A stretch of 64,000 nt of DNA from Gekko japonicus (lineage: Eukaryota): contig NW_015170281.1 in NCBI RefSeq assembly GCF_001447785.1, positions 269,522 to 333,521 of the forward strand, written 5' to 3'. The notes below the pieces were generated by a model, which was given only the letters and a program-made list of their open reading frames with translations, ran no database searches and was not told the origin of the DNA. Below, piece after piece: positions 5,905-43,664 of the stretch. Within the stretch, counting starts at the first letter, position 1; each line of letters starts with the position of its first letter. The position numbers and the translations under genes were made by a program.

Positions 5905-8220
5905 GACCAAGTGTCATCCACTGGAGAAGGAAATGGCAACCCACTCCAGTATCTTTGCTAAGAAAACCCCATGGACAGTATCAAAAGGCTAAAAGATATG
6001 ACATCGGAAGATGAGCCTCTCAGGTTGGAAGGTGTCCGATATGCTACTGGGGAAGAGCAGAGGGCAAGTACAAGTAACCCCAGAAAGAGTGAAGCAGCTG
6101 GGCCAAAGCCAAAAGGACGCTCAGTTGTGGATGTGTCTGACGGTGAAAGGAAGGTCCGATGCTGCACAGAACAGTACTGCATAGGAACCTGGAATGTAAG
6201 ATCTATGAATCAAGGTAAGCTTGACATGGTCAAAAATGAGATGGCAAGACTGAACATCGATATCTTAGGAATCAGTGAATTTAAGTGGACAGGAATGGGC
6301 GAATTTAACTCAGAAGACCATTATATCTACTACTGTGGCCAGGAATCTCGTAGAAAAAAATGGTGTGGACTTTATAGTCAACAAGAGAGTGCAGGGGTCA
6401 GTACTGGGATACAATCTCAAAAATGACAGAATGATTTCAGTCCGATTCCAAGGCAAACCATTCAACATCACAGTAATCCAAGTCTATGCCCCAACCACTG
6501 ATGCAGAAGAGGCTGAAGTGGACCGGTTCTATGAAGACCTACAACACCTCATAGAACTAACACCAAAAAATGATGTCCTCATCATCATAGGGGACTGGAA
6601 TGCTAAAGTAGGAAGTCAAAAGGTAACCGGAATAACAGACAAGTTTGGCCTTGGAAAGCAAAATGAAGCAGGGCAAAGGTTAACAGAGTTTTGTCAAGAG
6701 AACACACTGGTCATAGCGAACACCCTTTTCCAACAACCTAAGAGACGACTCTACACATGGACATCACCAGATGGGCAACACCGAAATCAGATTGACTATA
6801 TAATTTGCAGTCAAAGATGGAGAAGCTCTATCCAGTCAGTAAAAACAAGACCTGGAGCTGACTGTGGTTCAGATCATGAGCTACTCATTGCAAAATTCAG
6901 ACTTAAACTGAAGAAAATTGGGAAAACCACGAGGCCATTCAGGTTTGACCTAGATCGCATCCCTGATGAATATACAGTAGAGGTGAAGAATAGATTCAAG
7001 GGTCTGGATTTGATAGATAGAGTGCCTGAAGAACTATGGACAGAGGTTCGTGACATCGTACAGGAGGCAGCAATCACCACCATCCCAAAGAAAAAGAAAT
7101 GTAAGAAAGCAAAGTGGCTTTCTGATGAGGCTTTACAAATAGCAGAGGAAAGAAGGAAAGCGAAAGGCAAAGGCGAAAAGGAAAGATTTACCCAACTGAA
7201 CGCAGATTTCCAGAGAACAGCAAGGAGAGATAAGGAGGCCTTCCTGAATGAACAATGCAAAGTAATAGAGGAAAACAATAGAATGGGAAGGACTAGAGAT
7301 CTCTTCAAGAAAATTGAAGAAATCAAGGGAGTGTTCCATGTAAAGCTGGCCATGATAAAGGACAAAAATGGTAGGGACCTAATAGAAGCAGAAGAGATTA
7401 GGAAAAGATGGCAAGAATACACAGAAGAACTATACAAGAAAGACCTCGATGTCCTTGACAGCCACGACAGTATAATCACTGACCTCGAGCCAGACATCCT
7501 GGAATGTGAAGTTAAATGGGCCTTAGAAAGCATTACTAACAACAAAGCTAGTGGAGGGGATGGTATTCCAGCTGAGCTATTCAAAGTCTTAGAAGATGAT
7601 GCTGTTAAAGTGCTGCACTCAATTTGCAGCAAATTTGGAAAACGCAACAGTGGCCACAGGATTGGAAAAGGTCAGGATACATTGCAATGCTCCTTGGGAA
7701 GAAAGTGATGGCGAACCTCTAAACAGCATGATAAAAAGTAGAGACATCACCCTGCCAACAAAAGTCTGCATGGTCAAAGCAATGGTATTCCCAGTAGTCA
7801 TGTATGGCTGTGAGAGTTGGACTATAAGGAAGGCCGAGCGCTGAAGAATAGATTCTTTTGAACTATGGTGCTGGAGAAGACTCTTGAGAATCCCTCGGAC
7901 TGCAAAAAGATCAAACCAGTCAATCCTAAAAGAAATCAACCCTGACTGTTCCCTGGAAGGCCAGATAATGAAACTGAAGCTCAAATACTTTGGCCACCAA
8001 ATGAGAAGGGAGCACTCACTGGAGAAGACCCTGATACTGGGATAGATTGAAGGCAAAAAAAGAAAGGGACAGCAAAGGATGAGATGGTTAGACAGTGTTA
8101 TCAATGCAATGAACATGAAATTAAGCAAAGTCCGGAGGATGACAGAAGACAGGAGGGTCTGGTCCATGGGGTCATGAGGAGTCGGACTTGACTGTGCAAC
8201 TGAACAACAACAACAACAAA
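5905..8220 (+). mobile_element. RTE-BovB LINE with 5' region, endonuclease and 3' end; RT core deleted near 7675-7700; (CAA)n tail
   Basis: IGTWNVRSM, QVYAPT, GDWNAKVG, QIDYI and SDHELL motifs; jumps from just upstream of the RT core to KSRDITLPTKV..YGCESWT; A-run frameshift near 6355; tail tgaacaacaacaacaac. Confidence 0.96.
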
Positions 8221-18386: not shown

Positions 18387-18584
18387 AAACAAAAACAAAT
18401 CTGTATCCTTAAGTACTAGTAAGTATTCATTCCACTCAGATCTTGGTTCATGGAAAAGACAAATACAACCCACCTGTGTTTCGAACTGGCTCCTCAGTCC
18501 TTGCTGTCTTCAAAATGCCCGTGTCCACTGATGGAGAAGGAATAGTGTGCGAAATATTGTTGTCATACTAATGACCTTGATACT

Positions 18585-19820
18585 CACGGATGACAGAACA
18601 AAAAATCTTAGGTATAGAACAAGCAGGATTTTGTCAGGGGAAGTCAACTTTGAATCACTGTATTGTGTTAAGTCACTTAGTGAATAAATACAAAAAAGGG
18701 AAAGGGTCCAAGTTGTACGCTGCCTTCCTAGATTTGAAGAGCGCTTTTGATACGGTCTCGAGGGAGCTTCTATGGAAGAAGTTAAGGATGAGATTGTTCC
18801 TGTTGATTAGGAAATTATATACAGATACCACTTGTCAAGTAAGAGGCTCTAGGGATGGTGATTTAACCCCGAAAATTTCCATCAATATAGGGGTTAAGCA
18901 GGGCTGTGTATTGGCTCCCCTCCTTTTTAATCTTTTTTTAAATGATTTGGCCACGGGGTTAGAGGGGATTGCTGGACACAGTCCAATTTTGAGCTCGCGC
19001 CCGGTGCCCCTGCTATTGTATGCAGATGATGCTGGGGTTGCCTCTGTGTGTTCCCTATGCCGCCATTTGTTTGGAAGTCAATTTGATATGCTTGGAAACC
19101 AGGGCTTGGATAATTACTTTCAGATTTCGGCTATGTTTGCATTTTAGGAATTGTCCCAATAGCCTTATTACATAGCTGTTGAAAGAGTCTCATTGTTCTG
19201 AGTGGTTTGCTGCTATAGAAAGGAAAATCGTCTCAATAGGCTTATGCTTGAAGGATATGATGGCCTTATCTGAAATACACATCTTTGCCCTGCTCAAACA
19301 GAGATTAATTGATAATGAGATGCAAGAGCTTAGAGCTTTGGCTTCTGGTAGATGTTCCCCTTTAAGATGGGCATGTTTTCTGATCAACGCCCCCGCACAA
19401 TGCTTATCGGATTTGACTTCCCCACAGCTGCATGGAGCATTTATGCTGGCCCGCTTTAACATGCTTCCCTCTGCGGTTTTAGCAGGAAGATTTAAGAAAA
19501 TCCCTTACTCAGTTAGGTTTTGTGATTGTGATTCAGAGGAGATTGAAACAACCGAACACGTATTCCTTTATTGTAGTTTGTATGATGACATTCGAGCAGT
19601 TTATTTAGAAGCTATTCTGAAGAAAGATGTCAAGCAATCTGATGACAGAAGGTTGTACTGTTTACTGGCTTCACAAAATATAGTGGTTATTGAAGCGGTG
19701 GCTAAGTTCTGTAATGGTCTTATAATGAGGAAGCTGTGTGCTAAATCCATGAACTGAAGGGTGACGGTTTATGATTCTGATCTATGCCAATAAAGGTTTT
19801 GAAATTGAAATTGAAATTGA
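18585..19820 (+). mobile_element. RTE-X-like non-LTR retrotransposon, 5'-truncated and internally deleted
   Basis: EQAGF, FLDLKSAFDTV, GVKQGCVLAPLLF and LLYADD motifs; C-terminal CxC..ETTEHVFLYC zinc motif; AATAAA plus (GAAATT)n tail. Confidence 0.8.
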
Positions 19821-37215: not shown

Positions 37216-40076
37216 TTCAAATTTTTTTTCTAAAACACTACAAGAAAAATAGGGATGAGGAACTATAAACTACAGGAGAAAGTAAAGAAAAACCACTAAA
37301 ACCCCAAGAGGTGGTGGTCATACAATGGTTACAATACAAAGCTTATAATAATAAAAATATTGGTTACATTAAATGTGATCATTAAATTCGCTTATATGTT
37401 TCACATCCAGAACTTCTGACTTCTTCAAAAACAATATAAAAGAACTCTTATATGTTATCAACAAAGAACAAAAACAGACTTCAGAAAAAATTAGCATCTC
37501 ATTTTTTATCTTTTCTTTCCCTCAAACGATATTCTTGCTTTGGGGCTGCCACCCCGAGTTCCAGTAGGTGATCCTTCATCACTTCCCTTGTGACTCTTTG
37601 TTAGCCGAATTGCTCCAAAAAGGAAACAATTGATACAGTTTTTAACTTCGGGAACAACCGTCTTTGTTTACGGAGGATGGCACTGATTCTGAGGTCCCCA
37701 ATAAGAGACTGAGGCAGACTTCTTAATAAGAATAATTGTTTACTAGCACACTTCACACAGTAAGCACACAACAACCACAACACACAAGAACTAGGAAATA
37801 CAGAAATTCAGCACAGTTGCAATTTGCAGGTAACGTTGGTTGATGCTTTGGGGTATAATTACCTGGCTGCTTCTGCGTGGCTCCAAACTTCAAGCGAAGG
37901 GGTAAGGATGGGGAGAAAATGGAAAGGAATAGCAAATGGACTCAGACTAGCTAAGACCACGTGCTAAGAAGTTCTAGCTGTGCACTGCTAGAACAAAGAG
38001 AGGGATGGGAAGGATTTGGAATGGAAAGCTGAATTGAAGGGTAAAGCAGGTTAAATAGAGGGCGTAGTTTGAGAGCGCTGGGGGGTTTCAGGTAGAATGC
38101 TCAAGAGAACGAACTGGAGGTGCGTTCCTGATTATATCAAAGAGGGTCAGGGGGAGGAGCTGGGGCCAGGAGACCTCCCCTGTGACGAGGCGTTCTGTCA
38201 TAGCCAAGAGGTCTGGGATTGGCTATTGTAATTCTCTGGGAGGGCCTGGAAACTGGAGGGCAGTTTGAGATCTAGTGACTAACTCAATTAGGACACCTGG
38301 GCTAGGGGTATTCGCATGTAGATGTATGACTCATCGCCAGGAGGCCAGGTTGAATAGAGAGTCTTTGTGAGGACGTGCTGTCCGTTGGTGTGAGGGGGAG
38401 GGGGCTTTCAGGTATGTGACCATGTAGCTGGTTTGAAATGGAGTCTGCTGCTTTTGTGTGACCATGTGCTTGGAACAAAATGGAGTCTGCTGCTTGCTGT
38501 GGCCGTGTGCTTAGAACAACATTGCGTTTGCTGGACATGGGAACACCTCAGGAATAGCAACCATAAGAGGAAACAGTGTCTCTGGTATGTATCCTATTGG
38601 GAGCTCACAGCATGTCAGTTTCTGGCACAGTCTGTCATTGGCACACTTCATCAGGTACAGTAACTCAGTTCATAAAAACACCATGGCAGGTGTGCAGGCT
38701 TACATCTTCTCATCTTCTTCCTCTGATGGTCCAAGTTGCTGCTGCAAGAACGCGCTCGCTTTCATAACAGAGTCAATTTTCCCCCTTTTGTCTTTAAATT
38801 TAAACAGCATGAATTCAGGTATGATTCATTTGTAGGGGATGTTATTCTTTTGTAAAAACAAATCCAAGTCTCTGTATTTTTTCCCTTTTCTTTCTTATTT
38901 CAAAGGGAATGTCTTTCAAAACTCTTATCTCCTTGCCGTCAATTTTAAGGGTAGTTCCATTTGTTGCCTTTAAGATCTGGTCTCTCACTTGTCTTCTGGA
39001 GAATCTAACCACCACCTCACCGGGCAGATTATTTTTCTTTATAATATAATTGTTCTTTATAATATAATTATAGATCACATCCATTTCACTTTGAAGAACA
39101 TCCACTTTTAAATCTGCAACCAGACCGAGGGCATCAATCATGATCTGCCTTAGATTCTCCTCTTTGGTCTCAGGAACTCCTTGATATCTCAGAATAAAGC
39201 TTGCTTTTTCCATTTGCAGCTGTAGAAGCTGAGCCTCATCTGAGTTTCTCTTCTTTTCCATCTCCTGTATTTGTTTTTTAAGCTTTTTAGTGTTGGCATC
39301 CATTTCTTTGTTCTCAGCTGTTTGCTATGTTTTTTTAATGCTCTCACTTAGTTGCTGTTGCTGTGCAGCGAAGTTATAATTGAGCATCTTCATTTGCTCC
39401 AGCAGGGCTTGCAAAGCATCTGTTAGCATCTTAGAAAAGTCTATGGTTACATCTGGTTGCGTGATCGCACTCGTTGGGCTGGCACTTCCTGAAGAAGGCT
39501 TAAGTTTCAGATGCTTATCTTTCTCCATCTTTTTCAGCAACATCTTTGAGGATGTTTACATTCAAAGTAAAGTTGCCAAAAGCCTCTCAAGTCTGCAAAA
39601 TGCCTAAAAGCCTCTTGTAAATTCTTTAATATCATCTCTTTCACTTTTAGTTCTGCCCCCCTTCTATTTTAAGTCCATTTTTATTTCAATGGGGGGGGGT
39701 TCCCCCCCTCGCTTTAAAAGGAACTTTCAACCGGTTCTCTGGCGTCTGCTTCAACCAAACTCACTTTTATTGTAGATCAAATAGATCATGCCATTTGTCA
39801 TTTAAAATGCTTGGCCTCCACACACTTGTCCCGGTGTGCATCTCTGAGTCCAGTACTGGAACACAGCGGCGAGACCATCGGGGCATCAGAACGCCTCAAT
39901 CCACTGGCAGTGTGCCATGGGAGAGGCCATCTCTGGCACCCCATGGCTAGAAACCCTTTGCAAGGGTTCCAGGGGAGTGCGTATGATCACACCCCCTCTC
40001 CAGCCACCAGTTCACAGATCGCGCCCTCGGGAGATCCCGTCCGGCATGTCTGCCATTAGAGCACCAAAACCGGAAG
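37216..40076 (-). mobile_element. L1-type element with 5' UTR, ORF1 and A-rich tail but no ORF2; 22-bp TSD
   Basis: TSD ctccaaagctgccattttctct at 37194-37215 and 40077-40098; ORF1 coiled-coil, RRM and CTD motifs (LRYQGVPE..EENL, VVVRFSRRQVRDQIL, LKDIPFEIRKKR). Confidence 0.85.
37599..38704. mobile_element. 1106-bp solo LTR with 4-bp TSD TCTT, inserted in the L1 ORF1 tail
   Basis: tgttagcc...ggcttaca inverted termini, tctt flanks; removal restores the ORF1 reading frame. Confidence 0.85.
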
Positions 40077-41419: not shown

Positions 41420-42205
41420 CATGGCGACCTTAATTGTAAGCCAATTGAGCTGATTGAGCGCACGGGCCGCTTTGCCCCCGGGAGGAAAGGTGAGATTGAC
41501 AGCTGCACTGAGATGCAGCGTGTCTCGGCGCTGAGTGGGCGGGGCTGGCCTTTATAGGCTCGGCCCCGTTCCCCCTCTTGTCAGTTGCGCCTCATGCTTG
41601 GCCCACCCGCCCACCCTGTGTTCTGTGTAGGCTTGTGCTGGCCGCTTGTTTGGGGCCGGGTAGGAATTTTTTCACACTTATCCAGATTGGCAGGCGGATG
41701 AGTGTTTTTTCGCCTACCTTACAACGAACATATGGGAATCTGTTCGGGCCTTCTTGGAGTACGGGCCAGTAATTAGCCAGTCACTTTGGCAGAGTAGGGT
41801 GAGAAAGAAAGCAGAACCAGTAAGCACTTTCAGCCAGTTCCAGTTTGGGACCAGGGGGTCATCAGGAAAGGCCCCAGGGCTGTAGGACTTAGGGCTGGGA
41901 ATGGTGACCACCTCAGGGAGCCTCTTGGGTAAACTCCTCCCTGAGGCTGTAGGGCTTCAGGGGTAGGCGCTCCTGGGGGGTGACCTGTGTGCTGGGCAGC
42001 CAGTCGCGGGCCAGAGACTTGGCCCTAGACTGGGGCTAGTGACTTGCCCATACATCTAGGCAAGGAGGTTGGCTGGAGTGACACCTGCCTGGCCTGTTCT
42101 GCTCCCACTTAGTTCCCTTGCTGTTGATTTATTATGCAAAAGAAATAGTTAATAAAGTGGTCCTTGTTTTGAATTCCAAACAGTTGTCTGTCTCATTATT
42201 TCTGG
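41420..42205 (+). mobile_element. DIRS/Ngaro-like terminal-repeat remnant (non-coding)
   Basis: CpG-rich; GC box 41537-41544, TATA-like 41551-41556, cccacccgcccaccc, structured U-rich motif, aataaagtggtcc end; family assignment is from memory of such elements. Confidence 0.5.
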
Positions 42206-42419
42206 CTCCAGGGGCAATAGATGAATAGGAAGCGATCAAGTAAATCCTAAGAAGGTGCAGGTGATGGACGGATTCAGAAAGATGGAGGTGAATAGAAATG
42301 AATGGATTCAACATCAGAATAAAACTAGCCAACCAACTTCCCACAGTGGAAGTTGGTGGCACAACATAGAATAATTAACGTGAAGAATACTGGGTAAGAG
42401 TAGGGGTGCCACCAAAGAT

Positions 42420-42980
42420 TGTGACATTCAAATTTCACCCCAGAATCTTGGTATGGAGAGGTATCTTGATATGGGGAGGTAAACACGTTACTTACCTGCT
42501 CTTCTCAACATGCAACAATATGTGAATATGCATGGACATTGGGGACGCTACATCACTCTAAGTATGTATAGGTGTTATCTCCTTGAATGGGATGCCTCTT
42601 TTTGTCTTAACCTGGGAGTTGCCCTCTGACCCTTCCTCTTTCTCCCTTTGTCATCTCACTCTCTTTATTTGGCCTTCCATGGAGACATGTGTCTCTGCAG
42701 GTCTCTCCAGTAGATATATTGCCCTCATACTCCCACACACGTGATGCTCCCTCTACTTCCCAGCACACAGCCTAAGGACAAGCTGGGCATTTGTGATAGG
42801 GAAAGTACTCTTTAGACTAGTCTTCTCTCTCTCCTTTCAACTGTAACCTGAATGTGAACTGGATCTACTTGAATAAATGTGTTTACTTTTTCTGCAATAT
42901 GTATTTACTGCACTCAGGATCATGCTTCTATGACTGGACAAACTCTGCTATATTAAACAAGTATCCCAATACTTCCCACA
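42420..42980 (+). mobile_element. 561-bp LTR-like unit in a tandem array with short spacers
   Basis: TGTG...CACA termini, AATAAA at 42872; junction sequence repeated at 42336-42455 and 42971-43075. Confidence 0.6.
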
Positions 42981-43664
42981 GTGGAAGTGGGTGGCAGAAC
43001 AAAGAACAATTTGGGTAAGAGTAGGGGTGCCACCAAAGATTGTGACATTTAGATTTCAGCCCAGATTTTGGTATCATGGTATGGGGAGTTTACTTACCTG
43101 CACTTCTCATATGGCAGTGTCACATGGCAGTCAGTTGCTTTGGGTTCCAAATTGTTCAGGAGAAGCCGCCACCCCCTTTGCCTTCTTCACATTGAAGGTG
43201 TTGATGGAAATACTCTAAATAGGCCTGGTCTGCAGGAGACTAATTAGGCCCTAATTTGGGGGTGGGAAGAATAGTGTGGGACTAGTAATTCAGGTTTATT
43301 GGATCAGCAAGCACTATGAGGTATTTATTCCTCAATCAAGCTATACCATTGTCTGGAGGCAGTGGGAAAGCTTCGCTGGGATTCTTCAACCCAGTGGTAG
43401 CAAAAAGTGGATGTGAAGAGTGACTTTGCAACATCATTTCTGGTTTGTACCCAGAAGTACAACTCTCTAGGAATTTGTCCATCTATGGTAAACATCACAG
43501 AGATGGGTCAACTCCCTGTTTCCAAAATGCTCCCTCTACTTCCCAGCACACAGCCTAGGGAGGGAACTCTCTTGGGTTTTGGCATCAAGGACTGAACCCA
43601 TATTCTGATCAGCATCAGGAGATGTTGACAGTCAGCATTTCTCAGCACCTTTTGTATTTGCAGA

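Follow-up and report, generated by a model that had tools for sequence, protein, structure and literature searches.

A 64,000-nucleotide stretch of the genome of the gecko Gekko japonicus (contig NW_015170281.1, positions 269,522 to 333,521; hereafter the window) carries a solo end of a Ngaro-type retrotransposon with an ENE-like RNA hairpin, in which a U-rich internal loop is framed by two stems. This hairpin forms one of the arms of a larger three-way junction whose stems covary among Ngaro families of the same genome, and the same fold recurs in the 3' UTR of LINEs of the CR1 type. With moderate confidence, we favour the reading that the U-rich arm acts as an ENE of the type known from the PAN RNA of KSHV, and that it would clamp the poly(A) tail of the full-length element RNA in a U-A-U triple helix and thereby slow its decay.

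The ENE-like arm is part of a three-way junction

A preliminary description of the window had reported two stems separated by opposed U-rich strands, interpreted as the architecture of an ENE, with a GC box at 41537 and a TATA-like TTTATA at 41551 upstream and an AATAAA at 42151 downstream. All these features, indeed, lie where they were reported, and the stems and U-rich strands constitute the minimum-energy fold of positions 41640-41740, comprising a lower stem (41658-64 with 41713-19), a 9x7 internal loop and a 10-bp upper stem (41674-83 with 41696-705). The predicted stability of this fold is -34.4 kcal/mol (z -3.24), with none of 200 shuffled sequences being equally stable, and the minus strand of the same segment folds more weakly (-25.3 kcal/mol). 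The minimum-energy fold and the comparison of families (see below) together delimit the arm as 41658..41719 of the + strand, with the loop strands AA-U6-C (41665-73) and U5-CG (41706-12) and an apical loop containing ATTGGC (41686-91). The copy in the window is slightly decayed, as position 41706 is T instead of the G found in most relatives, and the pair closing the upper stem is lost.

The analysis with RNAalifold further showed the hairpin to form an arm of a three-way junction (41624..41725, + strand), which was overlooked in the preliminary description. The other parts of the junction are a closing helix P1, formed by positions of about 41624-31 and 41718-25 and with six of its eight pairs changed on both sides, and a side hairpin P2 at about 41638-57. 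Searches against Rfam yielded nothing at the gathering score for the hairpin and two chance matches only (E about 6) elsewhere in the unit 41440-42218. An exact pattern of the two arms has 413 matches in the genome and the reversed pattern has none, so the two-arm pattern is not due to chance.

The arm resides in the solo end of a Ngaro-type retrotransposon

The unit hosting the arm (41440..42218, + strand) represents the solo A-C-B end of a tyrosine-recombinase retrotransposon of the hydrolase-bearing Ngaro type. It belongs to a high-copy repeat (2128 first-look candidates, 40 of which were scored), whose top copies are about 91% alike and have common ends. Repeat A (41440..41600), the first ~20 bp of which are missing from the window copy, contains the GC box (41537-42), the TATA-like sequence (41551-56) and an initiator-like TCAGTT (41581-86), the spacing of which suggests a transcription start near 41583. 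It is followed by the unique spacer C (41601..41787), occurring only between A2 and B2, and by repeat B (41788..42218), which is folded into covarying helices and includes the AATAAA signal (42151-56), a conserved CCA (42176-78) representing the putative cleavage site, and a terminal GGGGCAA (42211-17), all on the + strand.

Longer relatives of the unit exhibit gag-like, reverse transcriptase (RT), recombinase and hydrolase frames between its first 175 bp (A) and its last 435 bp (B), and the full Ngaro form reads A1-ORFs-B1-A2-C-B2, with C of ~185 bp. This order is displayed by an intact relative, L085, in which A1 and A2 are 100% and B1 and B2 99.3% identical, and which has Pfam matches above the cut-off to PF00078 (RT), PF00589 (recombinase) and, after the recombinase, PF13472 (SGNH hydrolase). 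The split-repeat layout and these domains bear out the DIRS/Ngaro-like affinity suggested by the preliminary description. In the window's own family the RT scores above the cut-off and the recombinase just under it in two copies, and the hydrolase, with no Pfam match in the one copy tried, is 53% alike to that of L085. Ngaro elements with the layout A1-ORFs-B1-A2-B2, an RT, a recombinase, an SGNH hydrolase and solo AB repeats have been described before (PMC9210276, PMC8547959; for the layout also PMC7192593), but the parts of PMC9210276 and PMC8547959 that we could access do not mention a unique, structured spacer lying between A2 and B2.

Spacer C is absent from 39 of the 40 loci picked by their recombinase, and the B1-A2-C-B2 end was seen at seven loci, including one (L053) that belongs to the window's family and has the coding part deleted. 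A junction pattern specific for that family matched a single true B|A junction, its other match being due to chance. A unique spacer in a solo repeat is known from the Chlamydomonas element TOC1. Most copies are either of the A-ORFs-B form or solo A-C-B ends with precise ends, the full-length form being rare (one of 40 coding loci); this split could be explained by homologous recombination or by the element being resolved through its own recombinase. The copy in the window, a decayed solo end, shows no sign of having an independent function.

Several other features were observed in passing. The sequence at the natural B|A junction forms a long hairpin (L085:6746-6832; also in L204, L053, L176 and L203), with RNA z values of -2.4 to -5.5 in five of six junctions and -0.5 in the sixth; the sequences are unrelated between families, and the hairpin is a candidate for a folded single-strand substrate of the recombinase. 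Inspection of the window by eye identified LINE fragments at 5962-7708, 18581-19757 and 38842-39324 (an endonuclease-RT frame, RT pieces and an ORF1-like piece), and a local duplication lies just downstream of the element (42336-42507 and 42971-43109, with a spacing of ~620 bp).

The fold covaries among Ngaro families

To compare the fold across relatives, all within the single genome of Gekko japonicus from which the motif counts and families stem, 112 cores were reduced to 77 complete units, leaving 35 without a complete gap-free C-B unit out of the clustering, and these were grouped into 19 families with a median identity of 56%, each represented by one natural copy. The upper stem has been rewritten among the families yet remains paired, and the opposed U tracts and the UUGG loop are kept. 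Upper-stem arms pair better with their own partners (-14.4 kcal/mol) than with those of other families (-9.4 kcal/mol; permutation p 2e-5, 19 families), and a register test agrees with this preference. The polarity of the fold assumed in the preliminary description is likewise upheld, the + strand being the more stable one in 19/19 families, with 54 G-U pairs on the + strand and seven on the other. Stem covariation with persisting U tracts, one of the checks proposed there, is thereby supported.

The first set had been picked on the motif itself, and a second set of 50 loci was therefore chosen by a different motif located 60 nt upstream. Allowing up to two mismatches, the 5' arm is kept in 48 of these loci and the 3' arm in 45; one of the 50 is not an element and one has a gap. 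The 5' U run measures 5-6 in 41/45 and the 3' run 4-5 in 42/45.

The apical loop is mostly GATTGGC, with ATTGGC occurring in 97/112 cores and in 40/45 loops of the second set. This sequence matches the NF-Y site, and it might be argued that the conserved segment is a DNA element, namely a reverse CCAAT box between inverted repeats, or else a by-product of repeat amplification. The G-U asymmetry and the compensation between families, however, speak against this interpretation, as do subfamilies with TTTGGC (nine among the 100 matches listed, and most CR1-type matches), in which CCAAT is broken; we consider it largely refuted and its residual probability negligible. A separate idea, that the TGG in the loop is a primer site for a tRNA, was ruled out, as the bases past TGGC differ between families.

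Covarying helices predicted by RNAalifold extend through all of B. In the C+B RNA as a whole, 73/154 pairs have changed on both sides and 0/500 shuffles reach as high a number, a count biased towards the structure, which was derived from the same rows. Two conserved G-C pairs cap the lower stem, with the AA/CG loop standing between them and the U tracts. Pattern scans of metagenome and viral contigs gave no matches.

The same fold occurs in a divergent Ngaro family and in CR1 LINEs

Relaxed patterns searched over the genome uncovered two further carriers of the fold. The first is a divergent Ngaro family with 41% identity in the recombinase. Its P1 helix has an unrelated sequence with both arms present in 19/20 copies, and a different 7-bp complementary pair (arms in 16/20 and 14/20) takes the place of the poly(A)-signal helix (see below). 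The second carrier is a LINE, with 237 exact matches of the CR1-type module in the genome against none for a control. The module sits in the 3' UTR and includes the same AA, U tracts, CG, UUGG loop, side hairpin and closing helix. An RT (PF00078) was identified in the host element at L226, the ORF stops 114 nt before the module at L234, and a common tail is shared by 23/30 loci; we take the element to be a CR1 from recognition of the ORF end and the 3' tail. Across the main families, the divergent family and CR1, the closing helix has three unrelated sequences, and one pair of the lower stem is U-A, C-G and A-U, respectively.

The CR1 copies are not uniform. One amplified subfamily (24/30 loci) keeps the U tracts and has two mismatches in the lower stem, the G-C pairs atop the lower stem are broken in one CR1 subfamily, and an AATAAA is found within 200 nt in 5/30 loci only. 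At L250, L251, L259 and L260 (contigs C249 and C599), the CR1-type module was observed in duplicated units rich in tandem repeats, with a new AATAAA ~110 nt downstream; here it has possibly been captured into a host 3' UTR.

The sharing of the module by two elements with unrelated replication and proteins argues for a function directed at the host. It also bears on the hypothesis that the structure is a packaging, dimerisation or reverse-transcription signal read by the element's own Gag or RT and marking replication-competent RNA. Such a role would fit the single occurrence of C, confined to RNAs with a B|A junction, and the structured nature of the whole C+B RNA (the 73 pairs noted above), and the primer of DIRS-order elements is, as far as the accessible part of PMC7192593 goes, unknown. 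However, the CR1 elements carrying the same module differ in both proteins and priming, and priming from a tail held by the loop would be expected to leave the 3' half of C uncopied, making this hypothesis rather improbable. Self-priming from a clamped tail was rejected on logical grounds, as part of C would be lost.

Spacer C is linked to the 3' end of the RNA

The end of C (41779..41787, + strand) is complementary to 42154-62, a segment overlapping the AATAAA, with one mismatch and one extra G-U pair in the window copy. The corresponding helix measures 9-11 bp in 16/19 families, a length of 9 being reached by 5% of shuffles. A longer duplex, in which the 3' half of C would pair with the end of B, proved not to be family-specific (p 0.07). 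In Ngaro, 390-441 nt separate the arm from the AATAAA. The CCA is located 18-22 nt past the AATAAA in 107/115 B ends and is followed by A in 96 of them; it is conceivable, as a guess, that the UUGG loop pairs with CCA and the first A of the tail, and the same CCA can also pair inside C. A genomic A tract that might serve as a third strand was not found in common, an A5 run being present in only 4/19 units.

Two other short complementarities or words deserve mention. The start of C (window 41601-41608) is complementary to the extreme end of B (42211-42216), and both change jointly in the divergent family (L275-L294); the extreme end of B lies beyond the putative cleavage site, so this pairing would need B1 or an uncleaved RNA. 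In addition, a word resembling a 5' splice site near the start of B (window 41820-41827) is kept in most families.

A similar word, resembling a 5' splice site, occurs at the base of the stem in 17/19 families (CAGGTAGGA in nine and CGGGTAGGA in eight). In HIV-1, U1 suppresses a poly(A) site. The structure might accordingly be a binding site for a host protein or an element of 3' processing that works with no triplex, choosing between the identical poly(A) signals of B1 and B2 or recruiting a stability or export factor via the U tracts and the UUGG loop. The complementarity between the end of C and the AAUAAA-overlapping sequence, which could mask either signal, and the invariance of the loop and the lower stem are also compatible with this possibility. 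On the other hand, CR1 holds the fold with neither the poly(A) signal nor the splice-like word, read-through of the B end has already been seen (see below), so that B1 may just be leaky, and two opposed U tracts of matched length are left unexplained. We thus regard this alternative as unlikely, albeit compatible with the poly(A) clamp and not exclusive of it.

Expression of the element

Among the sequencing runs searched, no carrier recorded as RNA was listed. Three raw RNA runs, from tissues not stated, provided 1676, 830 and 766 reads mapping to L085. All three runs contain a GT..AG splice on the + strand, which indicates sense transcription of the L085 family. The splice itself (L085:2180-5724, in the three raw runs and one contig) removes 3543 nt from a Ngaro RNA and places the SGNH hydrolase in frame behind the start of the gag frame, the RT and recombinase being excised; two minor splice joints are likewise in frame.

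Read depth in L085 is 0.2-1.3 over C and 27-45 over B, C being at least 20-fold scarcer in all three runs, a comparison that is no clean test, since 39/40 coding copies examined lack C. Six first mates in run X7 start at the C of the conserved CCA, whereas read ends at 7481 and 7487 in run X8 are at odds with it. Reads crossing the B end in copies numbered 25 in X7 and eight in X9. On the window unit 114 raw reads could be placed, none at least 99% alike, and no poly(A) loose ends were listed among them, nor was a tail junction seen on L085. From the read data, a protected full-length RNA can be neither demonstrated nor dismissed, and there is no support in them for an abundant 0.6-kb RNA.

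These results bear on the model put forward in the preliminary description, a separate non-coding RNA of ~595 nt that would be transcribed from A2 or from the promoter of a solo unit and stabilised by the fold. The promoter is present, A2 being the same as A1 (100% in L085), the distance from the putative start site to the CCA is ~595 nt, and the few X7 reads over C share one orientation. Nevertheless, C reads are scarce in all three runs, and no cluster of read starts was found at the predicted start site among the few reads mapped. With the unit itself being the solo end of a retrotransposon and none of its 114 reads closely matching it, the stand-alone ~0.6-kb RNA is not supported, and we deem it very improbable that such an RNA is the selected product.

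Comparison with known ENEs

Published criteria for ENE searches include a stem-loop, an internal loop rich in U and neighbouring G-C pairs (PMC7583470). The KSHV PAN ENE, a single-domain, poly(A)-clasping element, resembles the gecko module in the succession of a stem, opposed tracts of 4-6 U and a second stem, partly in G-C pairs by the loop and in having no genomic A tract, leaving the tail as the candidate third strand, as far as it is described in the accessible part of the same source. The gecko module, characterised here by its sequence and predicted fold, differs in that an AA/CG loop separates its U tracts from the lower stem, in its setting within a three-way junction, in a conserved apical loop with UUGG, placed at a constant 27-30 nt from the base of the stem, and in its distance of several hundred nucleotides from the AAUAAA, bridged by a long-range helix.

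ENEs of transposons, namely those of Evade/Copia93 (PMC12501189), the double ENE of rice TWIFB1 and the ENEs of stickleback retroviruses (PMC7583470, PMC13541005), are likewise found in non-coding sequence towards the 3' end of a retroelement RNA, and Evade provides a functional precedent (PMC12501189). Interrupted lower stems are also seen in double ENEs (PMC7583470, PMC13541005), but the predicted folds in Ngaro and CR1 have a single U-rich internal loop and do not qualify as double ENEs, and the hosts here are a reptilian tyrosine-recombinase element and a LINE. According to the portion of PMC7583470 at our disposal, transposon ENEs are reported from plants, fungi, a slime mould and stickleback retroviruses, the last being the only case among vertebrate mobile elements, and no host of the two kinds described here is named.

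The ENEs of MALAT1 and NEAT1 share with the gecko module the U-rich internal loop between two stems, but the latter has no G/C interruption in the U tracts, no tRNA-like element and, as mentioned above, no common genomic A-rich tract that would serve as the third strand of a MALAT1-type structure. In the literature searched, we found no account of an RNA fold in either Ngaro or CR1 and no report combining triple helix, ENE and DIRS; the tables of the Tycowski 2016 survey, lying outside that search, could bear on novelty. The gecko module is thus ENE-like by its predicted shape, with an atypical AA/CG loop.

A possible role in protecting the full-length RNA

The interpretation of the arm as a PAN-type poly(A) clamp is favoured by the opposed U tracts between covarying stems, by the lack of a conserved genomic A tract, which implies that the poly(A) tail would be the third strand, by a helix that would bring the 3' end near, and by the presence of the module in elements with unrelated proteins. 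The 3' end of the full-length element RNA contains the fold. Spacer C would be carried only by RNAs reading through B1 as far as B2 or starting at A2, and it is the read-through RNAs that would contain the B|A junction required for rebuilding the element's ends. With B folding back and the end of C pairing at AAUAAA, the 3' end, ~430 nt away, could be brought beside the loop, where the 4-5 opposed U's would take 4-5 A's; the clamp would then selectively protect C-bearing RNAs and so favour the replication template.

Some observations do not sit easily with such a clamp. The invariant AA/CG loop parts the U tracts from the lower stem, and the invariance of the lower stem and the UUGG loop hints at contact with a protein or at a tertiary contact, which would be dispensable for a simple ENE. 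Further points against it are the CR1 copies with no poly(A) signal of their own, the amplified CR1 subfamily with its mismatched lower stem, the longer C-to-B-end duplex that is not family-specific, the scarcity of RNA over C, the failure to observe poly(A) loose ends and the X8 read ends that misfit the CCA.

A broader and more tentative scenario, which we consider possible but doubtful, is that a portable RNA module consisting of the three-way junction, the ENE-like arm, the UUGG loop and a downstream pairing strand has moved between CR1 LINEs and Ngaro, and that in Ngaro it serves both to dock the 3' end and to clamp the poly(A) tail, such that, of two identical poly(A) sites, a protected and replication-competent RNA arises only from the distal one.

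Even if no triplex is formed, a covarying fold common to a LINE and a recombinase element represents, within the literature searched, an undescribed cis element. If the clamp is real, poly(A)-clamping would reach two widespread groups of vertebrate retrotransposons, with hundreds of natural variants per genome, and it may offer a handle on how Ngaro elements with two identical poly(A) signals make and keep the read-through RNA that they need.
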